Shown: one piece after another, positions 10,239 to 58,546 of the stretch
Numbering within the stretch: position 1 is the first letter of the stretch
How the letters are laid out: each line of letters begins with the position of its first letter
Assembly: GCA_031458695.1 (NCBI GenBank)
Contig: JAVKJW010000005.1
Span: 20,390 to 84,389 of the forward strand
Reading direction: 5' to 3'
Length of the DNA: 64,000 nt
Source of the DNA: Candidatus Thermofontivivens primus
GTDB taxonomy: Bacteria; Sysuimicrobiota; Sysuimicrobiia; Sysuimicrobiales; Thermofontiviventaceae
Made by a program: the position numbers and the translations under genes
The notes under the pieces: model-generated
The model's database searches: none
What the model was told of the DNA's origin: nothing
The model's input: the letters and a program-made list of their open reading frames with translations, nothing else

Positions 10239-11525
10239 CTAGCCCAGTTCCTTCCGCCACTTCTCGATGTCTGGCTTCGTCAGCACGAGGGGTACCGTGA
10301 CCGTGCCCTCCCGGATCTTCTTCTCCAGCTCGGCAACAGCAGCCCAGATCCACTGTGGTTGCGCCTCGCGCATCGCCTTGACCTTTGCACGGATCTCCGC
10401 TGGCGGGGCAGGGAGGACCTTCTTCCCCGTCAGCTTCTCGGCAGTCTGTCCCATCTTGATGAACTCGTCGAGATCGGCGAGCGTGGAGACTGAGATCCCC
10501 TCGGTGAGCTCACCAGCGACCTTAGTGCCGATCCCCAGGACCAGCGTCCCCTTGGTCTGCTTCACGAGGTCCCGGAACTTGCCATCCTTGACGAACTTTG
10601 TCGCATAGTAGACGCCCTTGTCCACGCGCTTCATCATGCTGGCGATGACGAAGCCCGGGTTGATCCAGTCCTGGTTGGCGTCGACGCCGATCCAGAACGG
10701 CGGGCCCATCTTCAGGCCCCTGGCCTTGGCGATTTCCTGTACCGCTTGGTTGATGCCAAGTCCCAGGGGACCGGCGATGTTGTACACCGCAACCGCATCC
10801 TTGGCGTACATCGCCTTTGCGGCTGCATAACCCTTGGGGATGTCGCTGAAGGTGCCGGTGTACGTCCAAAGGACAAAGTCCGTGCGATACTTAAAGGCTT
10901 TATCTGGCTTGTTCTTGAACATCCACTCCGTCGCCCACCGGGCCCCCCACTTGTAGCCGATCTCAAACTTCCAGAGGACGGGGATCTCAATGCCGAATAC
11001 TCCGCCAATGTAGGGTTTGTTGTAGTGGGCTGCCAGCAACGTGGCCAGGGCGCCCACGAGGGCGCTCCCCTTGTGCTCTTCGTACACGATATCCATCAGG
11101 TTGGGCAAAGGGTACTTAGCCGGGAACTTCTCCTTGATAATGGATTGGGCAAAGGTATCGATTCCCACGAAGTTCTTGTTGGGGAACCTCTGGGCGACCT
11201 GGGCGAGGGCATCGCTGAGCAGGAAGCCCACCCCCACAATGAGCTGGACATCTGGATCCCTGGCCGCAGTCGTCAGGTTGGGGACGTAATCGGCCTCCAC
11301 CTTGCTGATGAGCTCCACCATCTGGACGCCGAAATCCCTCTCCGCATCCTCACCGCCCTTGAATGCCATGTCGTTGAAGCTGAGGTCCCCCCGGCCTCCG
11401 ATGTCGGAGACAACGGCGATCTTGAAGCGTTTGGGGGCGGCCTGGACGAGTGCGTAGGGGAAGGACTGGAGCAGCAAAGCCGCGAGGATGATGAAAAGCG
11501 CCCCAAGCCACAACCGTGACTTCAT
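10239..11525 (-). CDS. BMP-family (PnrA-like) ABC substrate-binding protein, probably nucleoside-binding.
   Basis: Start placed at MKSRLWLGALFIILAALLL... (signal peptide) rather than the longer track ORF. BMP/Med-family fold. First gene of the transporter operon. Confidence 0.85.
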   Translation of the reverse strand: MKSRLWLGALFIILAALLLQSFPYALVQAAPKRFKIAVVSDIGGRGDLSFNDMAFKGGEDAERDFGVQMVELISKVEADYVPNLTTAARDPDVQLIVGVGFLLSDALAQVAQRFPNKNFVGIDTFAQSIIKEKFPAKYPLPNLMDIVYEEHKGSALVGALATLLAAHYNKPYIGGVFGIEIPVLWKFEIGYKWGARWATEWMFKNKPDKAFKYRTDFVLWTYTGTFSDIPKGYAAAKAMYAKDAVAVYNIAGPLGLGINQAVQEIAKARGLKMGPPFWIGVDANQDWINPGFVIASMMKRVDKGVYYATKFVKDGKFRDLVKQTKGTLVLGIGTKVAGELTEGISVSTLADLDEFIKMGQTAEKLTGKKVLPAPPAEIRAKVKAMREAQPQWIWAAVAELEKKIREGTVTVPLVLTKPDIEKWRKELG

Positions 11526-11789
11526 CGCCTCTCCCTCCTCTTTCGCATGTTGGCGGCCGGGGTCTTGGTTTGGAAAACCGTTCTCCCCGGAAGCCCCAGG
11601 GGACCTTGCCCGGCACACCACTTCTAAAACTACGTCACACCCTTCCCGGAAACCTGCAAAGAGATCTACGCAGCCAAAGGATTTTTACACCTCAGCGATA
11701 TGCAAAAAGGCAACCGCGCACGCGGCCACGAATTCATGATTGTAAAGCGGCTCTGTACCCAGCGAGGCGGTCGCGGAGGGGGAGAGGGG

Positions 11790-12683
11790 TTGGCCCGGAT
11801 TCTTGTCACCGGTGCAGCGAATGTGGATCTCATTGGCGCTCCTGCTGACCCGCTTATCCCAGGAGTGTCCAACCCTGGGACAATCGCGCTGGCCCCAGGT
11901 GGAGCAGCCCGGAATGTGGCCGAGCACCTCTCCCAGATGGGCCATGATGTGCACCTGATCACGGCTGTAGGGGATGATCCCTTCGGGAGGTGGGTCCTCG
12001 ACGCGACCGCGCAGGCGGGCGTAGATGTTTCCAGCGCTTTCCAGTTTCCAGGTCAGCGCACAGGGCTTTACCTTGCGATCCTCGACGATGGGGAAGTCAC
12101 TGCAGCAGTCTCAGCCACAGGGATCGTCGAGGAGCTGACCCCTGAATCCCTCCAGACGCGCGCACCGTTGTTTTCTCAGGCAGACATCGTCGTAGCAGAT
12201 GCGAACCTCCTTCCTGAAGCTCTCTGGGAGGTGCATCGCCTTTCCAGGAACGCTCTCCTATGCCTCCTTCCTGTCTCCCCCCAAAAAGCCACCCGCCTCC
12301 GCGGGATCCTGGCAGAGGCTGATCTCGTCGTGGGGAGCGCCAAGGAGGGAGAGGTCCTTGCTGGCCGCCCGTGTGGATCTCGGGCGGATCTCATCCTTCT
12401 TGGGAGGGCGATCCTCTCCCATGGCCCGAAGGTCGTCGCCCTCACGATGGGTGGAGAGGGTGCGGTGGTGATCACAGAGGATGCATACCTCTGGGCTCCT
12501 GCTCCCAACGTCAAGGTTGTGGACCCCACGGGAGCAGGGGATGCCTTCGCGGCAGGGATCATCCATGGAAGAGCCCTTAGGCTTCCCCTCCGGGAGATGC
12601 TGGAAGGTGCCATGGACAGGGCAGCCATTGCCCTCAAAGCTCGTGGGAATCTCTGGAGGCATCTTCTAGGAGATTCATCCTGA
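11790..12683 (+). CDS. pfkB-family carbohydrate/nucleoside kinase, probable pseudouridine kinase.
   Basis: Ribokinase-like N-terminus (ARILVTGAANVDLIG) and GAGD motif near the C-terminus. Immediately upstream of a pseudouridine-5'-phosphate glycosidase gene. Start is uncertain: the track ORF starts at 11700, and a TTG at 11790 preceded by GGAGG is my preferred start. Confidence 0.7.
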   Translation: MARILVTGAANVDLIGAPADPLIPGVSNPGTIALAPGGAARNVAEHLSQMGHDVHLITAVGDDPFGRWVLDATAQAGVDVSSAFQFPGQRTGLYLAILDDGEVTAAVSATGIVEELTPESLQTRAPLFSQADIVVADANLLPEALWEVHRLSRNALLCLLPVSPQKATRLRGILAEADLVVGSAKEGEVLAGRPCGSRADLILLGRAILSHGPKVVALTMGGEGAVVITEDAYLWAPAPNVKVVDPTGAGDAFAAGIIHGRALRLPLREMLEGAMDRAAIALKARGNLWRHLLGDSS

Positions 12684-12708
12684 TCCTCTTCAGAAGGGAG
12701 AGAGATCC

Positions 12709-13638
12709 ATGGGGGTCGAGATCCTCCACGCCTTCGTCGACCTCAGCCCTGAAGTGGCCGAGGCAATAAGCCAGGGTCTTCCTCTTGTTGCCCTGGAGAC
12801 CACAGTGGTCACCCACGGTCTCCCCTTCCCTTACAACCTCCAGGCGATGGAGGAGATGGAAAAGGCCGTTCGTGAGTGGGGAGCGGTCCCAGCAGCAATT
12901 GGGGTCATCCGGGGACGTCTCCGGATCGGCCTCTCTAAAGAGGACCTCAACTGGCTTGCAGAGGGGAAAGTGGAGAAAGCCACGGCGAACGACCTTGCGG
13001 CGATGGTGACGAAGGGCCAAAGCGCGGGGTTGACTGTCTCTGGGACCCTCGCCGCGAGTAGGCTCCTAGACATCCCTATCCTGGCTACGGGAGGGATTGG
13101 AGGAGTCCACAGAGGGGGATGGAGGACGTGGGATGTGAGCAGGGACCTCTACGAGCTTAGTAGGACCCAAGCGGCTGTTGTGTGTAGCGGGGTGAAGATC
13201 CTCTGTGATGTAGCGTTGACCCTAGAGCTCCTGGAATCCCTGGGGATAGGAGTGGTAGGGTTCCAGACCGATACCTTTCCTTATTTTTACCTGAGATCCA
13301 GTGGGCTTCCCATTTCCACCACAATGGCCGATCCGAAAGAGATTGCCAACCTCCTGCTTGTTCGGCGGAGGTTACACCAGCAGGAAGGGATCCTTGTGGT
13401 GCAACCCCTTCCAGAGGACTTAAGCCTTGAACGATCCATGGTGGAAGAGGCATTACGCGTGGCTGAGAGGAACGCGAGGGCGAAGGGGATCCGTGGGAAA
13501 GCGCTCACCCCGTTTCTCCTCCAGTCCCTCCATGCGCTTACCTCTGGAGCCACGGTCCAGGCCAACCTCGCGTTGCTCTCGTCCAATGCCCGGCTTGCCG
13601 CTCAGATCGCCTCTGCCCTCGCGGATCTCAGGAGGTAG
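12709..13638 (+). CDS. psuG: Pseudouridine-5'-phosphate glycosidase (IndA family).
   Basis: 309 aa. Conserved GGIGGVHRG...VVCSGVKILCD motifs of PsuG. Confidence 0.85.
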   Translation: MGVEILHAFVDLSPEVAEAISQGLPLVALETTVVTHGLPFPYNLQAMEEMEKAVREWGAVPAAIGVIRGRLRIGLSKEDLNWLAEGKVEKATANDLAAMVTKGQSAGLTVSGTLAASRLLDIPILATGGIGGVHRGGWRTWDVSRDLYELSRTQAAVVCSGVKILCDVALTLELLESLGIGVVGFQTDTFPYFYLRSSGLPISTTMADPKEIANLLLVRRRLHQQEGILVVQPLPEDLSLERSMVEEALRVAERNARAKGIRGKALTPFLLQSLHALTSGATVQANLALLSSNARLAAQIASALADLRR

Positions 13639-28687: not shown

Positions 28688-28900
28688 ATGCGTTGCCCGA
28701 AGTGTGGCACGGAGAACCCTCCTGGGAAGATCGTGTGCCGGAAGTGCGGCGTTCGCCTGAGGCCGCAGGCAACGTCCCAGGAAAGTGTGATCGGGGAGGA
28801 AGTAGTGGTGAGGTGGGTCCGTAGGGACCTTGGCCAGCTGGTTGTTGTTCTGGTCATCCTCATCACCTGTGGAGCTCTCCTGGGCTTTCTCTTCCGGTAA
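28688..28900 (+). CDS. Zinc-ribbon microprotein with C-terminal TM helix.
   Basis: 70 aa. CPKCG...CRKCG zinc ribbon, then LVVVLVILITCGALLGFLF. RBS-like AGGGAGG upstream. Ends exactly where selA begins. Confidence 0.5.
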   Translation: MRCPKCGTENPPGKIVCRKCGVRLRPQATSQESVIGEEVVVRWVRRDLGQLVVVLVILITCGALLGFLFR

Positions 28901-30345
28901 TGGGGGCAATGGCCAGGGGAGGGCCCATGGACCCGAAGGCCTCGCTCCGTCAGCTCCCCCAGGTTGAGCGTGTCCTCGCCCATCTGGACGCCGAGGGGTA
29001 TCTTCTCCGCTATCCCCGCGCGCTGGTTGTGGCTTGTGTCCGAGAGGTGCTAGAAAAGAAGCGCCAGATCCTCATGAGGGAAGATCTCCCCACCGTAGAT
29101 GTCTCCATAGAGGCCATCCTCCGCGAGGCCCGTGCTCTGATCGCACGAAAAAGCCTACCCTCTCTGCGAAGGGTGATCAATGCCACTGGAGTCATCCTCC
29201 ACACCAATCTTGGTCGTGCACCCCTGAGCGAGGCCGCAAGGAGGGCGGTTGCAGAAATGTCCAGCTATTCCACCCTAGAAGTCGGCCTGGAGGGGCGGGG
29301 AAGAGGCTCTCGGCATGCCCACATCGAGTCCCTTCTTGTCCAGGTGACTGGGGCAGAGGCAGGGTTTGCTGTGAACAACAACGCCGCAGCTGTCCTTCTT
29401 GTCCTGACGGCCCTTGCCCAGGGGAAGGAGGTCGTTGTGTCCCGGGGAGAGCTCGTGGAGATCGGAGGGACCTTCCGGATGCCCGATGTCATGGCGGCAA
29501 GCGGGGCCAAGCTCGTGGAGGTGGGAACGACAAACAAGACCTACGTGTGGGATTATGAGCGTGCCATTACCTCCCAAACGGCCCTTCTCCTGAAGGTTCA
29601 CCGAAGCAACTTCACTCTCCGGGGATTTGTGCATGAGACCGCCCTCCCAGAGCTCGTCCAACTCGGGAGGCGCGCGGGTATCCCAGTGATGTACGATCTC
29701 GGTAGCGGTGCCCTCCTGGACCTTGGCCGCCGTGGTCTACCCCAGGAACCAACTGTTGGGGAGGCGGTAAAAGCAGGGGTGGATGTGGTGACCTTCAGCG
29801 GGGACAAGCTCTTGGGAGGTCCCCAGGCAGGCTTGATCGTTGGCCGGAAAGAAGTCCTCAGGCGGATCCAATCCCATCCCCTTGCCCGAGCCTTGCGCAT
29901 CGACAAGCTCAACCTTGCTGCTCTCGTAGCAACCCTTCGCCACTACCTTGATCCCGAACGTGCGTGGCAAGAAGTACCCGTCCTACGCATGCTGTCGGCT
30001 CCCCAGGAGGAACTGGAAAGGCGGGCTCGCCAGCTTTGTGGAAGATTAGAGGAGATCCTCAGGGGAACTGCAGAGACGACTGTGGTAGAGACGGCCGCTG
30101 AGGCCGGCGGGGGCTCCCTCCCTGAAGCCCATCTTCCCTCCTATGCGGTGGCCATCCGTCCCCTTACCGAACCCGTGGAAAAATGGGATCAAAGGTTGCG
30201 CTCCCTTCCCCTCCCCCTCATCGGGGTGATTCGGGAGGATGCCCTCCTCCTTGATGTTCGTACACTTCTCCCCGGTGAGGAGGAGGAAGTGGTCGAGGTA
30301 TTTCGAACCCTCCTTACCCCGGATACACGAGAAATCATCACGTGA
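28900..30345 (+). CDS. selA: L-seryl-tRNA(Sec) selenium transferase.
   Basis: PLP-dependent SelA family (...[18 protein letters not shown]...). Start may be the downstream ATG ([10 protein letters not shown]...) at about 28927. Confidence 0.85.
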
Positions 30346-30352
30346 AACGGCT

Positions 30353-32299
30353 ATGCGGCAGTTCGTCATTGGTACGGCAGGCCACATCGACCACGGCAAG
30401 AGTGCCCTCGTGAAAGCTCTTACCGGCATGGACCCCGATCGGCTAGAAGAAGAAAAGCGACGGGGGATGACCATTGATCTTGGGTTTGCTTATCTTGACC
30501 TCCCAAGCGGGCGAAGGGTTGGGATCGTGGATGTCCCTGGACACGAGAGACTCATCCGGACGATGCTTGCCGGTGCGACTGGGATCGATCTTGTCCTTTT
30601 GGTCGTGGCAAGCGACGAGGGAGTGATGCCCCAAACGCGGGAACACTTGGACATCCTGCGTTTCCTGCACCCGAGCTGTGGCGTCGTGGTGCTCACTAAG
30701 ATCGACCTCGTTGAAGATCATGCTTGGCTCGCCCTCGTCCAAGAAGAAGTTGCTCAGCTGGTGGAGGGGACCTTCCTGCAAGGAATGCCGGTTATCCCTG
30801 TCTCCGCCAAGACCGGGGAAGGCCTCGACGTGCTCATACGAACCATCGATAAGCTTCTCGACGAGATCCCTCTACACCCCCAGGAGGGCCCTGTCCGTCT
30901 CCCTGTAGACAGGAGTTTCGTCATGCCTGGATTTGGGACTGTGGTCACAGGGACGCTCTGGAGCGGGCGGATCCGGCCGGGAGACGTTCTGGAACTGCTT
31001 CCGTCAGGGAAAGAGGTGCGTGTTCGAGGCATCCAGAGTTATGGGCAGTGGGTGGAGGAGGGAATCGCCGGGACCCGTGTTGCCCTGAACCTCGCGGGAA
31101 TCTCCAGGGAGGAGGTCCAACGAGGGGACGTCCTTGTCACCCCTCAAGCCTTTACCCCTGCGACGCTCCTCGACGTGCGCGTCGAGCTTCTTCCTCAAGC
31201 ACCGCCCGTTGCCCATATGACCCGCCTGCGCTTCTACCTGGGGACAGCAGAGGCGTTTGGTCGGCTTGCCCTTCTGGACCGGGAGGTCCTTGGTCCCGGG
31301 GAGAGCGCTGTTGGCCAGGTCCGGCTGGAAACCCCTGTTGTGGCAGCACGCGGGGATCCATTTGTCCTTCGACGCTACTCCCCCCTCCAGACCATCGGTG
31401 GGGGAAAGGTAATCTCCTCCGCTCTCGCGAAGCGCAGGCGAGGGGATTCCTGCGCTCTGGCAGAAATCCTCGCCCTGGAACGAATGGGTGAAGATGAGCT
31501 TGCCGAGAGGTTCACCTGGGAAGCAGGGTATAGGGGGATCACAATGGAAGAACTCTCCCAGCGCCTAGGACTCGCCCTGCCCACGGTCTACGAACTCATC
31601 CAGAAAATGTCCAGCGCGGGGTCAGCGATCCTCCTTGGGAGCAGGATCTTCCATTCGAAGGTTTTGGAAGACCTCAAGGAGGCGATCCTCTCGGCGCTCG
31701 CCAGCTACCACAGCGAGGCTGCATGGCGAGTGGGGATGCCCCGGGAAGAACTCAAGAAAAGGGTGTTTCGGGGTGGGGATGACCGCCTCTTTTCCCATGC
31801 GTTGGAGGACCTCCAACGGGAAGATCCCCTGGGAGGGCTCTCTGGGGAACCCTCCCAGGGAAAGGTGGCACTTAAAGGTTCGTTGGTCCGCCTCGAGGGT
31901 CATCGCCCGGTGAGAACAGAAGTGGAGGAGAGGTGCCTCCAGCACCTTCTCCGCATCTACGCCGAAGGTCGCTTCACGCCTCCTTCCAAGGAGGAGGCCT
32001 TTGCGCTCCTCCCAGAAGATCGGGCCGTCCTAGAACGCATGTACCAAGCTGCCTTGGACGAGGGCCTCCTTGTCGAAGTCAGACCTGGCATGGCATTCTC
32101 CCACCAAGCCCTGGAGGAGATGAAGATCATCGTCCTCCGGCATATCCAGGAGCATGGAGGGATCACCGTAGGAAACCTCCGTGATCTCCTTGCAACCAGC
32201 CGGAGGTATGCCCTCGCCGTTCTGGAACATTTCGATGCCTTAGGCCTCACGAGGCGCGTAGGAGATCGGCGGATTGCTGCCCACCGTTGGTTGGAGTAA
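30353..32299 (+). CDS. selB: Selenocysteine-specific elongation factor SelB.
   Basis: [25 protein letters not shown]... GTPase domain, beta barrels and C-terminal winged-helix domains. Start is 8 nt after the selA stop. Confidence 0.9.
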
Positions 32300-32351
32300 A
32301 TTCCGCTGGTTTTTCCAGAAGCCCAGCAAAACTCGATCAAGATTTTGCTGG

Positions 32352-32669
32352 CTACTCAGTGGGCTTTTCCTCTGGAGCCGCTTTCGGCCGTGCAACCCTC
32401 GGGCGTGCCCTGCGTACAGCACGCCTGCGCACTGCTCTCCTCCCCCTCACAGCCCGTCGGCGTGCGACGCGTCGGACTGGTGCAAGCAAGGATCGACCTT
32501 TCGTTAAAGCGCCGTGGTAGCGCGTCGCATCTTGCGAAACTTGCTTCAAACGTTGAATGAGCGTTGCAAGTGCCTCTGCATTGTTCTCTAACCAGAACCT
32601 TCGGATGGACATCTCAATTGCCACAAGGGAGTTCTCAAGCTCTTTATCAACGACTTTTGCACGTGCCAT
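32352..32669 (-). CDS. Hypothetical small protein in an AT-rich island: helical N-terminus, Arg-rich C-terminal tail.
   Basis: Strong RBS (ACAGGAGGTGACAGAGT ATG). N-terminal roughly 60 aa (MARAKVVDKELENSLVAIEMSIRRFWLENNAEALATLIQRLKQVSQ...) lie in low-GC DNA. The distal Arg/Ala/Val-rich tail lies in GC-rich DNA and may be read-through noise, so the true stop is uncertain. Confidence 0.3.
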   Translation of the reverse strand: MARAKVVDKELENSLVAIEMSIRRFWLENNAEALATLIQRLKQVSQDATRYHGALTKGRSLLAPVRRVARRRAVRGRRAVRRRAVRRARPRVARPKAAPEEKPTE

Positions 32670-32943
32670 ACTCTGTCACCTCCTGTGATTTTCTTTCTCC
32701 AAAACGCTCCCCCTTTCCTCGTGCTTCTCCAAAAAACAGATTAACACCGAATACTGCTTCCTACAATCCAAGCGGATCATCGTCCATCAAAGAGTTGGTA
32801 AATGTCCGGGCATATATTTTGATAAATTTGCCGTGTTGCGTCGATCATGGAAAGGAACGGATGGTTTTGTGAGTATCAAGAAGGGGTCAAACGTCATGAA
32901 GAAGAATGACACTCACAAGAGTTGCTGAGCGGAGGGAGGGACG

Positions 32944-34581
32944 ATGCCCTATCGGATGGGCGCACACAGCTTGGCGAAGGCTTTCAGGAGAGAGGGAGTG
33001 GATTGTATCTTTACCCTCTGTGGAGGACACATCATGCCGATCTACGAGGCGTGCCTGGACGAGGGGATCCGTATCATCGACGTGCGCCATGAACAAGCTG
33101 CTGCGTTCGCGGCAGATGCCTGGGGGCGGATGAAGCGTCGGCCTGGCGTTGCGGTGGTCACTGCAGGGCCTGGGATCACGAATACCGTCACAGCCGTTGC
33201 CAACGCATTCAAGGCAGGAACGCCGCTGGTCGTGATCGGCGGACAGGCCCCTCTCCTCCGTCTAGGGAAGGGAGATCTCCAAGAACTCGATGCGTTGAGC
33301 ATCCTGCGACCAATCACCTGTTGGGCCGCTCGCGCATGGACCGCTAACCGCCTTGCGGAGATGACCCACACCGCCTTTCACGAGGCAATGTCCAGGCGCG
33401 GGCCGGTTTTCCTGGAGGTCCCCATGGATGTCCTCCTCGAACCCGCCGGCGAGGAATCCCCCCAAATGCGACCAGGCCCCATGCAGCTCCATGGAGAGCC
33501 CTCCAAGGTGAAGGAGGCTGCCCAGCTCTTAGCGACCGCGGAGCGGCCTGTCCTCATGGGAGGGAGTGACCTCTGGTGGTCGGGAGCGGAGGAAAGCCTT
33601 ATGCGCTTTCTCGAGGTCCTTCCCTTGCCTGTCTACCTTAACGCAATGGGGCGGGGGATGCTTCCACCCGACCATCCCTGCTTCTTTGCCCTTTCCAGAG
33701 GGTGGGCACTGCGGGAAGCCGATGTCGTCCTTCTCATCGGGACCCCCATGGACTTCCGGTTAAATTTCGGGCGGGCCTTTGGAGAGAAAGCGAAAATCGT
33801 CCAGGTGGATCGAAATCCTGGGAACATTGGACAGAATCGGGAGGTTACCATTGGAATCTGGTCGGACGCACGCCCTTTCCTGGAGCTTGTAGCAGAGGAG
33901 ATCGCTGCGATCCCCCACCGTCGGAGCTCCCGCTCCTGGGTAGAGGCTGTCCGGCAGATCGAGCAACAACGACGGCAGGAACGGATCCCTCTCGAGGAAT
34001 CCGAAGCAATCCCCATTCATCCACTTCGCCTGGCCAGGGAGCTTGCAGATGTTTGTAGTGAAAACACGATCTTTGTCGGGGATGGCGGAGATGTGGTGTC
34101 GATCGCGGCGACGATCATTCACCCGTACCGGCCAGGGCATTGGCTTGATCCGGGGCCGATGGGCACCCTTGGGATGGGCGTTCCTTTTGCTCTCGCGAGT
34201 AAGCTGGCCTATCCGGAGAAAGAAGTGATTGCGCTCTTTGGCGATGGGGCTATCGGGTTCTCCATCATGGAGTACGATACCGCCGTGCGCCATGGAATTC
34301 CCTTCATTGGGATTGTCGGCAACAACGGGCAGTGGGCGCAGATCCGGTATGGCCAGGTTAGCATGTTCGGGGAAGAGCGTGCCGTCGCTACGAAGCTGCG
34401 AGTGGCGCGATATGAGCAGGTCGTGGAGGCATTGGGGGGCTATGGGGAGTACATTGAAGATCCGCGGGAGATCCGGCCTGCCCTCGAGCGCGCACGAGCA
34501 TCGGGAAAGCCGGCGCTCCTCAACGTCCGGCTGGATGAGACGTACTACAGTGACGCGACAAAACGCCTCTATAAGCTCTGA
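32944..34581 (+). CDS. Thiamine-diphosphate-dependent enzyme of the acetolactate synthase / oxalyl-CoA decarboxylase family.
   Basis: 545 aa. N-terminal Pyr domain (…DVRHEQAAAFAADAWGRM…GPGITN…), central domain, C-terminal PP domain (GDGAIGFSIMEYDTAVRHGIPFIGIVGNNGQW). Confidence 0.85.
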   Translation: MPYRMGAHSLAKAFRREGVDCIFTLCGGHIMPIYEACLDEGIRIIDVRHEQAAAFAADAWGRMKRRPGVAVVTAGPGITNTVTAVANAFKAGTPLVVIGGQAPLLRLGKGDLQELDALSILRPITCWAARAWTANRLAEMTHTAFHEAMSRRGPVFLEVPMDVLLEPAGEESPQMRPGPMQLHGEPSKVKEAAQLLATAERPVLMGGSDLWWSGAEESLMRFLEVLPLPVYLNAMGRGMLPPDHPCFFALSRGWALREADVVLLIGTPMDFRLNFGRAFGEKAKIVQVDRNPGNIGQNREVTIGIWSDARPFLELVAEEIAAIPHRRSSRSWVEAVRQIEQQRRQERIPLEESEAIPIHPLRLARELADVCSENTIFVGDGGDVVSIAATIIHPYRPGHWLDPGPMGTLGMGVPFALASKLAYPEKEVIALFGDGAIGFSIMEYDTAVRHGIPFIGIVGNNGQWAQIRYGQVSMFGEERAVATKLRVARYEQVVEALGGYGEYIEDPREIRPALERARASGKPALLNVRLDETYYSDATKRLYKL

Positions 34582-34609
34582 GAAATGTGATCCCAATCGA
34601 AGGATCGCC

Positions 34610-34704
34610 GGAGGGGGATGGGGCCTGGTGGTCCTCCTGGTCTTCAAAACCAGTGACGAGCCTGGATGGCCCGTGGTGGGTTCGATTCCCACACCCCTCC
34701 GCCA
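34610..34704 (+). tRNA. selC: tRNA-Sec (selC), anticodon UCA.
   Basis: Hand-folded. 8-bp acceptor GGAGGGGG / (A)CCCCTCC (terminal G.A mismatch). Anticodon stem CTGGT/ACCAG with loop CTTCAAA. Long variable arm TGACGAGCCTGGATGGCCCGTGG. T-arm GTGGG-TTCGATT-CCCAC. Discriminator G plus encoded CCA. Classic bacterial 8/5 tRNA-Sec architecture. Confidence 0.85.
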
Positions 34705-34753
34705 GAGGGTCTCTGCGCACCTTTGCTGAAAAATTTTGCTGAGGAGTGATCGC

Positions 34754-35230
34754 ATGGACGAGATGGCCATTCAAGACTTCTATCCTGACGAGCTGAACTA
34801 TTGCTATGGGTGTGGCCAGCTCAACGCGGATGGCCTGAAGCTAAGGAGTTTCTGGATAGGGGAGGAGGCGGTCGCCCAATTCACGCCTCGTTCCTACCAC
34901 ACCGCCATCCCTGGCTACGTCTACGGGGGGCTCATTGCTTCCTTGATCGATTGCCACAGTACAGCGACCGCTGCCGCGGCGAGCTACCAAGCAGAAGGAC
35001 GGGAGATGGGGACGGAGCCACCATTTCGATTCGTCACAGCATCGCTCCACGTGGACTATCTCCGCCCTGTTCCCATGGGTGTAGTGCTGGAGATCCGGGG
35101 ACGGGTGAAAGAACTCAAGGGACGGAAGGCTGTTGTACAATCCGAGGTGTTCGCCAATGACGAGGTTTGCGCCCGCGGGGAAGTGGTTGTAGTGCAGCTC
35201 CCCGAGCACATGGTCCCGAAGAAATCTTAA
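34754..35230 (+). CDS. Hotdog-fold acyl-CoA thioesterase (PaaI/YbgC-like).
   Basis: 158 aa. ...PGYVYGGLIASLIDCHSTATAAAA... matches the 4HBT motif. RBS GAGGAG. Confidence 0.8.
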   Translation: MDEMAIQDFYPDELNYCYGCGQLNADGLKLRSFWIGEEAVAQFTPRSYHTAIPGYVYGGLIASLIDCHSTATAAAASYQAEGREMGTEPPFRFVTASLHVDYLRPVPMGVVLEIRGRVKELKGRKAVVQSEVFANDEVCARGEVVVVQLPEHMVPKKS

Positions 35231-36122: not shown

Positions 36123-36359
36123 TTACCCATCCAGGAGCTCGAAGACGCTGGAAAAGACACTGGGCTTGTAGGGGTAGCCACAGAGCGTGCAGGTTCCAGT
36201 GGCATCCCGCAGGACCATACCGCAAGCAGGACAGTTGGTGAGGAGGGGAACGCCACAGACGGGACAGAAATCGGGGAACCCACGAGGGTCACTCGCACTC
36301 CATGTGAACGCGCACGCTGGATCAGGACATACAGCAAAGAACTCGAGTGACCTCGCCAT
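36123..36359 (-). CDS. Cys-rich double zinc-ribbon microprotein.
   Basis: 78 aa with four C-x2-C pairs (CPDPAC, CPVCG, CPACG, CTLCG). Confidence 0.5.
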   Translation of the reverse strand: MARSLEFFAVCPDPACAFTWSASDPRGFPDFCPVCGVPLLTNCPACGMVLRDATGTCTLCGYPYKPSVFSSVFELLDG

Positions 36360-36560
36360 CTCTTACCCCATGACAAACTCCGAGTGGAAGGACCTCCTCC
36401 TTTGCATACAATCGGCCCTTGAACCACCGACTTGAACCTCCTGCGCATCACTCCATCCCCTTTCTCTATGGGGGATCCCCAGGGATTTTAACCAATATCC
36501 GTTCATGTCGTGTGGTGTTCGTCCGATCATTATGAGATGAGAACACCGGAGGATGGGGGA

Positions 36561-37043
36561 ATGGCAAGGTACAGGAGTCGCCTCCCAGTTAAGGAATTCC
36601 AAGTCATCCACCGGTTCTGCCTGCACAAACCGGGGAATGTCCGGCGATTCCTGGGCCTCTCCTCCCGGGAGGCGCACGAGCTCAGTGGCCTCGCTCTCGC
36701 CGGGGTCGTGAACACCTCGGATGAGGTCATCTATATTGACCACTGCTTGAGTGAACCTGAGAAAGAATTCACAGAAATCCACGAGCTCGTGCACGCGCGG
36801 CGCCAGATAAACGGGGAGGAGCTCCAGGATTACGATCTTGAGGAGATCTACGTGGAGCTGGAGACGATCGCCCGCACCCGTAGGCCTACGTTGTTGAGCC
36901 TTTTCCCGAATACCCTCCTCATTCTCCTCCACGACTACCTTACCGAAAGGGGCCGCCTGAAACCGGATCGGAAGCAAGATCTTGCCAAGATTTACAGGAA
37001 GATCGAGGCTCTCATTGCCCTCATGTGCCCTGGGCGTTCCTAA
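36561..37043 (+). CDS. ImmA/IrrE-like (M78/DUF955) HExxH metallopeptidase-domain protein, orphan.
   Basis: ...EPEKEFTEIHELVHARRQ... matches the ImmA signature R-F-T-x-A-H-E-L-G-H. GGAGGA RBS 8 nt before the ATG (MARYRSRL...). No HTH partner nearby. Confidence 0.5.
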   Translation: MARYRSRLPVKEFQVIHRFCLHKPGNVRRFLGLSSREAHELSGLALAGVVNTSDEVIYIDHCLSEPEKEFTEIHELVHARRQINGEELQDYDLEEIYVELETIARTRRPTLLSLFPNTLLILLHDYLTERGRLKPDRKQDLAKIYRKIEALIALMCPGRS

Positions 37044-56446: not shown

Positions 56447-57118
56447 TCACCCTCTCCTCCCCTCCTCGTATCCTTCCATGAGGACGACGAGGATCCGGTC
56501 CATGAACCGGTCAAGCCGGCGTAGCCATTGGACCCGATTCTCAGGGTGAATCTCTTTTCGCTTGGTCACGACCTCGGTCATAAGCCGCTTGATAAACAGG
56601 AAACTTTCTGCGGCCTCCTGGGCCAACAGGTTCTTCTTCCCAGCGAGCAACCCTATACCCCGCCCGGCAACCATCCCTTCCTCCAAGTAGTGTTGCTGCT
56701 GTGGACCACCTCGCAGGTACTTCAGCAATGCACGCAGGAGTTGCCGTCCAAGGACCCGCATTTGGTGCTTGGCTTCCTCATCGAAGGCTTCGTACCATCT
56801 GCGAGTCATGTACCACTCCCGGACAGGCTGCACCACAAGATGATTGCCGGTCCGTTCAATCTCCTCCACGATCGAACCGACGCGGTGCTGCGGGTGCGGC
56901 TGCGTGAGCAACGCCTCGATTTGCTGGCGGGAAAACCGCCGGTGCCCCCCGGGGGTTCGAAAAACTTGGATTTTGCCAGTATCGGCCCACTGGCGTAGGG
57001 TGCTAGGATCCACTCCAAGGAGGAGACTGGCCTGACCCAGGGTCAGCCACTCCGATTGCCCAGCATACTTGCCCCGTTTTCCAACAGTTTCGTTCAAAGG
57101 AGCCGCCCCCGCTTTCAA
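56447..57118 (-). CDS. Excisionase/MerR-superfamily HTH regulator with a C-terminal domain of unknown function, upstream of the heme operon.
   Basis: LTLGQASLLLGVDPSTLRQWADTGKIQVFRTPGGHRRF is an excisionase-type HTH. It is followed by a helical domain of about 150 aa. Confidence 0.5.
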   Translation of the reverse strand: MKAGAAPLNETVGKRGKYAGQSEWLTLGQASLLLGVDPSTLRQWADTGKIQVFRTPGGHRRFSRQQIEALLTQPHPQHRVGSIVEEIERTGNHLVVQPVREWYMTRRWYEAFDEEAKHQMRVLGRQLLRALLKYLRGGPQQQHYLEEGMVAGRGIGLLAGKKNLLAQEAAESFLFIKRLMTEVVTKRKEIHPENRVQWLRRLDRFMDRILVVLMEGYEEGRRG

Positions 57119-57668
57119 TAGCTATAGGGCATATACTGGGAAAATCTATAAAATCCTCCTTGAAACTATGGAAATCTCCAAAAGTGATACCACCTCTAAA
57201 ATAACTACGATCTTGCTCCAAGAGAATCGGGCCACGGACTGATTTGCTGTCAGGTCACAGGAGGATGTTGAGGAGCCTTCTCGAATTTGGAAGAACCTCC
57301 CCCCACCCTGCTCCCTTGCCTGCGCCAGCCCAATCGCCGTGTTCAGGACAAGGAGGTTGGTCGGGTGCATCATCGTAATCCTGAAACAGCCTGTGAACGT
57401 AACTATTCCCGGGAACAGGAGGAAAGTCGCGTTGATCGCGAGAATTTTGGAGCTTATCTTGTGGTTTGGAAACCACTGCATCCCTATACCTGTGGAAAAA
57501 GGATAGCGGCGCGCTTGTAGGGTCCTTGGCTTTCTGGCGATCCCCGGCTTGGGAGGCCTTTTGTGCTGGAGGATATAATGGTAATCTCAGAAAGGTCCAG
57601 GCACAGTGAAAGACTCCCGCAGGGTATGGAACGAATCGTGCCTAGAAGGTCTCTATGGGAGGGTTCTT

Positions 57669-58010
57669 ATGCGCGTTGAGTTCCTGTACTGGGAGGAGTG
57701 TCCTTCGCACGAGGAGGCGCTCGCCCGCCTGAAGGCCGTCCTGGCAGAGGAAGGGTGCGAGGCTACCGTGGAGGTCATCCGTGTGGAGACCGAAGAACAA
57801 GCAGAGGCGCTACGGTTTCCGGGTTCTCCCACCATCCGGTTCGATGGAAAGGACATCGTCCCTGTGCCTGAAGGGACGCGTTTTTCTCTCACCTGCCGTG
57901 TCTACCACCTCGAGGATGGCAGGGTATCCCCGCTTCCCTCCAAGGAAATGATCCGCAGGGCCTTCAAGGAGGCCCTCGCATCAAAAACAACCGAAAGGAG
58001 GTCTCTGTAA
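57669..58010 (+). CDS. Small thioredoxin-fold protein (C-P-S-H motif).
   Basis: MRVEFLYWEECPSHEEA.... GGGAGGG RBS. TAATG overlap with the downstream redoxin gene. Confidence 0.45.
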   Translation: MRVEFLYWEECPSHEEALARLKAVLAEEGCEATVEVIRVETEEQAEALRFPGSPTIRFDGKDIVPVPEGTRFSLTCRVYHLEDGRVSPLPSKEMIRRAFKEALASKTTERRSL

Positions 58011-58546
58011 TGGCTGCCCTTGAGATCGGTGCTTCTCTCATCCCCTTCGCCCTTCCCGGAACCGACGGGAAGATTCACCGGACCGAGGACTACCAGGATA
58101 AGCGAGCGCTCGCAGTCATTTTCACCTGTAACCACTGCCCTTACGCCCAGGCCTGGGAAGGGCGGTTGATCCAACTCCAACGAGAGTATGCTTCCCGAGG
58201 AGTTCAGTTCCTCCTGATCAACCCCAACGATGCTACCAAGTACCCGGAAGATAGTTTCGAGAATATGGTCCGCCGGGCAGAAGAGAAAGGATATCCGTTC
58301 CCTTACCTCAGGGATGAGGACCAGACCGTCGCCCGGGCTTACGGAGCCACAAGGACCCCAGAGATCTTCCTATTCGACCAGGATCGGGTGCTAAGATATC
58401 ACGGAGCTCCGGACGACAACTACGAAAACCCCGCAGCGGTGAGGAAGCACTACCTAAGGGACGCCCTGGAAGCCGTCCTGTCGGGCAGATCCCCCCAGCC
58501 TGCCCAAACCCCTCCGGTGGGGTGCACGATCAAGTGGAAATCGTGA
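58010..58546 (+). CDS. Thiol-disulfide oxidoreductase of the redoxin / AhpC-TSA (TlpA-like) family.
   Basis: ...AVIFTCNHCPYAQAW... CxxC in the thioredoxin fold, 178 aa. Confidence 0.75.
   Translation: MAALEIGASLIPFALPGTDGKIHRTEDYQDKRALAVIFTCNHCPYAQAWEGRLIQLQREYASRGVQFLLINPNDATKYPEDSFENMVRRAEEKGYPFPYLRDEDQTVARAYGATRTPEIFLFDQDRVLRYHGAPDDNYENPAAVRKHYLRDALEAVLSGRSPQPAQTPPVGCTIKWKS

Follow-up and report, generated by a model that had tools for sequence, protein, structure and literature searches.

Why should selC, the gene of the selenocysteine (Sec) tRNA, lie 2.3 kb away from selA and selB in an uncultured Armatimonadota bacterium, and do the genes beside and between the three have any part in selenium metabolism? 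The stretch of DNA that raises these questions, called the window hereafter, comprises 64,000 nucleotides of Candidatus Thermofontivivens primus (contig JAVKJW010000005.1, positions 20,390 to 84,389). In bacteria, SelA converts Ser-tRNA(Sec) into Sec-tRNA(Sec), SelB brings the latter to UGA codons that have a selenocysteine insertion sequence (SECIS) after them, and selC is the tRNA. With a probability of roughly 85%, we read the locus as a canonical bacterial Sec-decoding locus that is set in conserved housekeeping genes and carries an old insert between selB and selC. The selA, selB, tRNA-Sec and zinc-ribbon genes, the minus-strand open reading frame (ORF) and the thiamine diphosphate (ThDP) enzyme listed in a first-pass annotation of the sequence are all present. 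The features of the locus are, in order:

28688 to 28900, plus strand: ZnTM, a microprotein of 70 amino acids (aa) that has a CxxC...CxxC zinc ribbon at the N-terminus and a transmembrane (TM) helix at the C-terminus (Pfam).
28927 to 30345, plus strand: selA, L-seryl-tRNA(Sec) selenium transferase, 472 aa (TIGR00474, Pfam SelA and Se-cys_synth_N).
30353 to 32299, plus strand: selB, selenocysteine-specific elongation factor, 648 aa (TIGR00475 and SelB domains).
32319 to 32353, no strand: hairpin between the convergent selB and orf105, a putative bidirectional terminator (folding).
32352 to 32669, minus strand: orf105, 105 aa, the N-terminal half helical and the C-terminal tail Arg-rich (Shine-Dalgarno, conservation).
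32670 to 32943, no strand: AT-rich intergenic region from which orf105 and the ThDP gene diverge, corresponding to the core of the "island" of the first-pass annotation (GC 0.456).
32944 to 34581, plus strand: ThDP-dependent enzyme, 545 aa, of the 2-hydroxyacyl-CoA lyase (HACL)/oxalyl-CoA decarboxylase/benzaldehyde lyase branch (Pfam, structures).
34610 to 34704, plus strand: selC, tRNA-Sec with anticodon UCA (ARAGORN, Rfam RF01852).
34754 to 35230, plus strand: hotdog-fold (4HBT) acyl-CoA thioesterase of 158 aa, right after selC (Pfam 4HBT, 49.7 bits).

SelA, SelB and tRNA-Sec are intact and canonical. SelA passes the NCBIfam equivalog TIGR00474 (588.1 bits for a cut-off of 267.9, full-length match from 16 to 469) and scores 500 bits with Pfam SelA, in addition to matching Se-cys_synth_N. 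SelB passes the equivalog TIGR00475 (369.7 bits, cut-off 242.25) and has the Pfam domains of an EF-Tu-like GTPase core and winged helices (GTP_EFTU, D2, Beta-barrel_SelB, SelB-wing_2 and SelB-wing_3). The two genes are adjacent, as had been claimed, with 7 nt between the stop codon of selA (30343-30345) and the ATG of selB (30353). The tRNA-Sec, which had been called by hand, is borne out to the nucleotide: ARAGORN places a tRNA-SeC with anticodon TCA at 34610-34704, and Rfam RF01852 matches 34610-34700 with 76.9 bits (gathering score 47). In its fold, the acceptor stem has 8 positions, the T stem 5 bp and the D stem 6 bp; the variable arm is long, G73 is present, and the CCA is encoded. In the closest relative (L083) the anticodon stem has undergone a compensatory change, from CCTGG/CCAGT to CCCAG/CTGGT. 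According to ARAGORN the window has exactly two tRNA genes, and a scan of the whole window with Rfam returned tRNA-Sec and tRNA-Arg only; neither a riboswitch nor any other RNA was found in the AT-rich gap.

The selA-selB operon plus selC of E. coli and many other bacteria consists of these three components, each of which passes curated models here. The locus differs from canonical ones in two respects: selC is found 2.3 kb further downstream, past two unrelated genes, instead of right after selB or far off, and a gene for a small zinc-ribbon membrane protein precedes selA. The tight spacing of the adjacent selA and selB resembles the selA-selB operon of Romero et al. 2005 (PMC1273633), and selD is usually located elsewhere (same reference).

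The transcription of the locus is probably split between selB and selC. The segment 32296-32356 folds with -19.2 kcal/mol (z = -3.7), and 0 of 200 shuffled sequences fold equally well; judging from this fold, the hairpin at 32319-32353 probably ends the selAB transcript as a bidirectional terminator. The tight spacing on one strand suggests that ZnTM, selA and selB are probably one transcription unit. The selC gene is found 28 nt past the stop codon of the ThDP gene and 49 nt ahead of the start of the thioesterase gene, with all three on the same strand. Since the hairpin would end the selAB transcript upstream, selC is probably made from the promoter region of the ThDP gene, or from a promoter inside that gene, and then processed out. 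A scan of promoters and terminators gave counts that were not above the shuffled expectation.

How selC came to be separated from selB can be approached by comparing related loci. We used a set of 80 loci obtained by a SelA scan of the species genomes of GTDB, to which 16 loci were added through look-ups of homologues of ZnTM and of the ThDP enzyme, giving about 100 related loci. The proteins of the window were mapped onto the sel-bearing loci by tblastn and the tRNAs of the loci were called by ARAGORN. One locus (L001) is the same sequence as the window, and three (L083-85) are relatives in its genus-level group. The order rny-ymdB-PHP-ZnTM-selA-selB is common to a large clade of Armatimonadota. 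The distance between selB and selC falls into three classes:

22 to 65 nt, gap empty: L095, L096 and L097 (Armatimonadota), L009 (Aminicenantes) and L032 (the latter two from other phyla).
1.3 to 2.8 kb, minus-strand secreted-protein-like genes in the gap: L002 (Ca. Fervidifonticultor secundus), L004, L007, L013, L021, L036, L080, L081 and L089.
2.2 to 2.3 kb, orf105 and the ThDP gene in the gap and the 4HBT thioesterase gene after selC: the window, L001 and L083-85.

In the second class, which is a sister clade, the gap holds one or two paralogous minus-strand genes, whose products of ~400-460 aa have signal-peptide-like N-termini and no Pfam match. In the third, the relatives L083-85 are 97% identical to the window in rny and about 84% in SelA. 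Among the compared loci, the presence of orf105 and the ThDP gene between selB and selC is confined to the genus-level group of the window. The compact form is found outside the phylum and, within it, in L096, which at 80% identity in rny is the nearest outgroup of the window. Because of this distribution, the most parsimonious scenario is that selB and selC were ancestrally contiguous and that their junction was opened by insertion, with cargo that would differ between lineages. The first-pass annotation had surmised that selC was displaced by an insertion, and the contrast between the spacing in the compact loci and that in the window supports it. Two side observations concern the same five loci of the second class (L002, L004, L013, L036 and L089): their gap proteins have the motif C-x-I-x-EG-x-GI-x-GV, and a gene for a secreted protein of ~150 aa and ilvD are found past selC, ahead of mutS.

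The insertion event is old, not recent, because the module is common to relatives whose proteins are only 78-85% identical, because the GC content of the ThDP gene (0.60-0.63) is typical of the genome, and because integrase, transposase and phage genes, flanking repeats and tRNA fragments are all absent. Scans with Pfam, NCBIfam, PHROG and PADLOC revealed no integrase, recombinase, transposase or phage genes, with no integrase or recombinase domain in 28.4-37 kb. A search of 32200-34800 for repeats that could be insertion scars gave only short two-copy matches, compatible with chance, and no tRNA-derived repeat. A 12-mer, AAGATTTTGCTG / AAAATTTTGCTG, present at 32339 and 34730, was considered as a scar and judged to be a chance match.

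In Enterobacteria, genomic islands are inserted by integrases at the tRNA-Sec gene, and one may ask whether the 2.3-kb segment, or its AT-rich part, is a recent island of this type. There is some likeness, since variable genes lie beside tRNA-Sec, the segment contains the lowest-GC 300 bp of the window, and orf105 is an orphan. Moreover, the site does receive insertions. In L082, a sister population of L083 with the same two genes between selB and selC (orf105 being represented by an orf108), the tRNA-Sec gene is truncated: it stays identical as far as CTTCAAAAC in the anticodon loop, after which unrelated DNA follows (11674-13611; compare 14829-14923 in L083). This foreign DNA encodes a coiled-coil protein of 430 aa without family match and a PhdYeFM antitoxin, for which PADLOC and PHROGs gave nothing meaningful, and it stands in the place of the thioesterase gene. 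ARAGORN calls no tRNA at the broken gene and Rfam gives it only 28 bits. The contig stops 1.9 kb past the break, and the members of the same species group (L083-85) have an intact tRNA-Sec followed by the thioesterase gene; the junction reflects either a mobile element that inserted into selC or a join made in assembly. We consider selC still to be an insertion target in this lineage. A recent island is nevertheless highly improbable in the window, which has neither an adjacent integrase nor att repeats (the tRNA direct repeat that marks the far end of tRNA-targeted integrative islands, or any other convincing direct repeat), and where the insert is upstream (5') of an intact tRNA and not at the tRNA 3' end. 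The GC content of the ThDP gene and the divergence of the relatives that have the module also argue against it, as does the small extent of the low-GC DNA.

This DNA had been described as a 0.6-kb low-GC island with a small minus-strand ORF. The low GC and the ORF are both there, but the stretch is only ~0.4 kb long (32500-32940), made of the 5' third of orf105 and the 274-bp divergent intergenic region, and its spacer is ordinary for the window. It does hold the lowest-GC 300-bp span of the window (0.44), but the GC content of its intergenic part (0.456) is no lower than that of three other promoter-bearing spacers (0.445-0.455). In L082 the spacer has diverged and is ~75 nt shorter, and the coding DNA on both sides aligns well. 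The AT-rich stretch is best described as a divergent promoter region, and the divergence of the spacer in L082 appears to be that of regulatory intergenic DNA. One sigma-70-like site was found in it (32819-32848, plus strand), which is not above chance. The segment 32867-32918, just before the start codon of the ThDP gene, has a 12-nt inverted repeat (TTGTGAGTATCA / TGACACTCACAA, 28 nt apart); it is missing in L082 and thus not conserved.

The three less familiar genes, ZnTM, orf105 and that of the ThDP enzyme, all look like real genes. The ATG of orf105 is preceded by a GGAGGTG Shine-Dalgarno sequence, and tblastn finds a counterpart of 108 aa with 90-92% protein identity in L082 and L083. 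The protein has no match in Pfam, NCBIfam, PHROG or PADLOC, and an exhaustive HMMER search of 1.84 billion representatives recovered its own cluster only; it is a lineage-specific orphan, small and basic.

The microprotein gene upstream of selA raises a different question, as it might belong to the Sec machinery. The first-pass annotation had it fused onto the front of selA, ending exactly at the selA start. This is an artefact of taking the longest ORF, which begins at the first ATG (28900) and gives a literal TAATG overlap with ZnTM. In L083, SelA starts with MDPK, whose counterpart in the window is the ATG at 28927; this ATG has GGGGAGGG upstream and is also the start of the 472-aa protein at NCBI (MDR7434323.1). 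Because this conserved start leaves a spacer of 26 nt, ZnTM is a separate gene, not fused to selA. It has a good Shine-Dalgarno sequence of its own (GGGAGG, 9 nt before the ATG), and compared with L083 its substitutions are biased to third codon positions (15/15/32). The protein is above the Pfam cut-offs of DZR (27.8 vs 27.3 bits) and Zn_Ribbon_1 (27.3 vs 25 bits) and has a hydrophobic C-terminus. In the 13 orthologues that align over the full length, M1, R2, C3, C6, N10, G13, C17, C20, R23-L24-R25, D47-L48 and G66 are invariant, and the hydrophobic tail follows. A profile search gathered 165 clusters, all of 69-75 aa, and all matches named to phylum were Armatimonadota, a few being labelled "bacterium" only. 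PADLOC and PHROGs gave nothing meaningful. Generic zinc-ribbon membrane proteins (DZR/Zn_Ribbon_1; JGI label "uncharacterized membrane protein YvbJ") have the same CxxC-X10-CxxC ribbon followed by a single TM helix. ZnTM differs from them in its length of only 70 aa, in having no extracellular domain and in its fixed position after the PHP phosphoesterase gene.

A functional tie to selenium had been suggested for ZnTM, and the conservation of the family, with its invariant Cys, RLR and D-L motifs, makes it attractive. In more than 20 loci of a deeply diverged clade (rny 71-80%), selA comes directly after ZnTM on the same strand, at 5-45 nt. ZnTM could then truly belong to the sel operon of Armatimonadota as an accessory or regulator, for instance as a membrane tether or regulator of SelA/SelB, or by coupling translation of the operon to metal or selenium status. 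We find this unlikely, because the two genes can be dissociated. The ZnTM gene comes after the PHP gene in every locus examined. Three loci (L086-88) have the order lexA-rny-(183 aa)-ymdB-PHP-ZnTM and then valS (the ZnTM homologue is at 9001-9222 in L086), with no selA, selB or tRNA-Sec in 18 kb. Conversely, in L023 the PHP gene is directly followed by selA, with no room for ZnTM, and in L013 only the TM half of ZnTM is left, the cysteines being lost. In the 80 loci of the SelA scan, ZnTM was never found upstream of selA outside Armatimonadota. In view of these cases, ZnTM travels with the rny-ymdB-PHP block, to which its position is tied, and selA does not need it; the link to selenium is thus not supported. 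A weaker role, in which ZnTM would open the sel operon of Armatimonadota as its first cistron and be a dispensable, unrecognised accessory of Sec synthesis or delivery that might localise SelA/SelB or tune selAB translation, seems quite unlikely to us as well.

The ThDP enzyme has all three domains of its superfamily above the Pfam cut-off, TPP_enzyme_N, TPP_enzyme_M and TPP_enzyme_C (PF02776, PF00205, PF02775). Its best NCBIfam match is the uncharacterised PRK05858-type NF004516, named "acetolactate synthase", which it narrowly misses (575.1 bits for a cut-off of 587). It is well below the cut-offs of HACL (NF058623, 368 vs 600), oxalyl-CoA decarboxylase (OXC; NF006721, 285 vs 557, and TIGR03254, 268 vs 739) and the biosynthetic acetolactate synthase (TIGR00118, 323 vs 538). 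No gene for a small regulatory subunit of acetolactate synthase adjoins it. The closest solved structures are those of an actinobacterial HACL (7PT1-4), OXC/HACS (8VZx) and benzaldehyde lyase, with E-values from 1e-79 to 1e-66. HACL and OXC/HACS (8VZx, 2C31, 2Q27) have the same three-domain ThDP fold and align over the full length (E ~1e-79 to 1e-59), but the enzyme of the window falls under the equivalog cut-offs of both. It most likely acts on an acyl-CoA substrate: its nearest solved structures are all lyases or decarboxylases that depend on CoA, and two genomic neighbours hint at the same, the hotdog thioesterase encoded downstream and, in L092, an acyl-CoA ligase gene that directly precedes the homologue. 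The thioesterase start at 34754, which has GAGGAG 7 nt before it, agrees with the gene called in L001. The gene is kept after selC in L083-85 (76% identity) and absent from all other syntenic loci.

The first-pass annotation had also raised a link between the ThDP enzyme and selenium. This was tempting but is unsupported, and is now removed. Outside the genus-level group, the nearest homologues of the enzyme are ~53% identical, and the few with a name come from other phyla (Gemmataceae, Poribacteria, Entotheonellaceae). Three homologues of other lineages (50-53% identity) have no sel genes and no common neighbours in their 6-kb flanks, and more than 20 syntenic sel loci outside the genus-level group of the window are all without the ThDP gene. 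Homologues without sel genes close by are the outcome that the first-pass annotation itself had named as speaking against a link. A specific form of the link would be that the ThDP enzyme and the thioesterase are a pair producing formyl-CoA or formate, co-expressed with tRNA-Sec and feeding a Sec-containing formate dehydrogenase. The ThDP, selC and thioesterase genes are on one strand with spacers of 28 and 49 nt, and this arrangement is kept in L083-85; the nearest structural relatives, HACL and OXC, are enzymes that release formyl-CoA. We nonetheless give this scenario hardly any credence. The enzyme fails the models of both relatives, no formate dehydrogenase or other selenoprotein gene occurs in the window, homologues elsewhere lack both sel genes and a thioesterase gene as neighbours, the other syntenic sel loci have neither gene, and in L082 unrelated DNA replaces the thioesterase. 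We conclude that no selenium role can be demonstrated for orf105, the thioesterase or the ThDP enzyme, all three of which are passengers.

Two further observations concern ThDP genes elsewhere. In Solirubrobacter (L049, L050 at 11090-12760, and L075), a gene of the ThDP superfamily lies between selA and selB on the opposite strand. This second, independent split of a sel locus by such a gene was considered as a recurrent association of ThDP and sel genes, but the gene is a bona fide biosynthetic ilvB for the large subunit of acetolactate synthase (TIGR00118, 739 bits), from a different subfamily, and the case was treated as a coincidence. In L094 (7671-9567), a homologue of 50% identity is followed by a protein of 365 aa without Pfam match and by two small UGSC-domain proteins, a single case. 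The UGSC family is thioredoxin-like, and selenoproteins are among its known members.

The window is core-genome DNA. Upstream of the locus are lysC, dapA, ftsK, cinA, recA, recX, a UvrD-type helicase-nuclease gene, sbcD, sbcC, rny, ymdB and the PHP phosphoesterase gene. Downstream of the sel region come a gene resembling that of 5-formyltetrahydrofolate cyclo-ligase (MTHFS-like), miaB, mutS, mutL, miaA, hflX, lexA and a heme biosynthesis cluster. ZnTM and SelA are identical to NCBI MDR7434322 and MDR7434323, from a metagenome-assembled genome of an Armatimonadota bacterium, and proteins of the window match MDR7434322-26. The names zinc ribbon domain-containing protein, L-seryl-tRNA(Sec) selenium transferase and thiamine pyrophosphate-binding protein had already been given there; MDR7434326, on the same contig, is a version of the ThDP enzyme with 541 aa and shares its 90% cluster. 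The locus is thus an ordinary, already automatically annotated Sec locus with a lineage-specific old insert.

Between the MTHFS-like gene and miaB, the window has a second small zinc-ribbon protein (36123-36359, minus strand), DZR-like, of 78 aa and without a TM helix, and an ORF weakly resembling M78/IrrE peptidases (36510-37043, plus strand). In L083 the 78-aa zinc-ribbon gene and the MTHFS-like gene are not found at the corresponding place. PADLOC and PHROGs gave nothing meaningful for the 78-aa protein (Zn78) or for orf177. Beside tRNA-Arg (56447-58546) are a minus-strand ORF of 223 aa, for which a helix-turn-helix regulator is a guess only, an ORF of 134 aa with ...EECPSHEE..., and an AhpC/TSA-type redoxin of 178 aa with a CNHCP motif; all use Cys and have no in-frame TGA. 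A scan of the six frames of the window for in-frame TGA, which is very noisy at 59% GC, gave no selenoprotein candidate, so that the first-pass statement that none was obvious holds. The long in-frame TGA pairs were adjacent ordinary genes according to Pfam, namely hemB with a radical-SAM gene and recX with the UvrD-type helicase-nuclease gene.

Several points weigh against our reading of a canonical locus with an old insert and unrelated neighbours. No selD, formate dehydrogenase or other selenoprotein candidate is encoded within the 64-kb window. The direction of the change, insertion as opposed to deletion, would follow from parsimony over a handful of lineages, with no rooted species tree. 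The recurrence of ZnTM just before selA in deeply diverged loci would also fit a role in the sel operon, if a dispensable one. The ThDP enzyme, whose acyl-CoA substrate is a prediction, is under every NCBIfam equivalog cut-off, and the transcription units and the terminator are derived from spacing and folding only.

With these points in mind, the locus may have had the following history. In the ancestral arrangement of the phylum, selB would have been followed directly by selC. In the lineage of the window, a 2.3-kb module would have been inserted long ago at this junction. It would have brought in the minus-strand gene of an orphan basic protein, a HACL/OXC-like ThDP gene and, between the two, the divergent AT-rich promoter region. 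As a result, selC would now have the ThDP gene 28 nt before it and the hotdog thioesterase gene after it. ZnTM, selA and selB would be transcribed as one unit ending at the hairpin after selB, and ZnTM is a phylum-specific small membrane protein whose position goes with the upstream rny-ymdB-PHP block.

The significance of these results matters little beyond correct annotation: they confirm selA, selB and selC in an uncultured lineage of Armatimonadota. They also point to the selB/selC junction, and to the selC gene itself, as recurrent insertion points in Armatimonadota, and they define a family of small membrane zinc-ribbon proteins, apparently specific to this phylum, with a fixed place after rny-ymdB-PHP.

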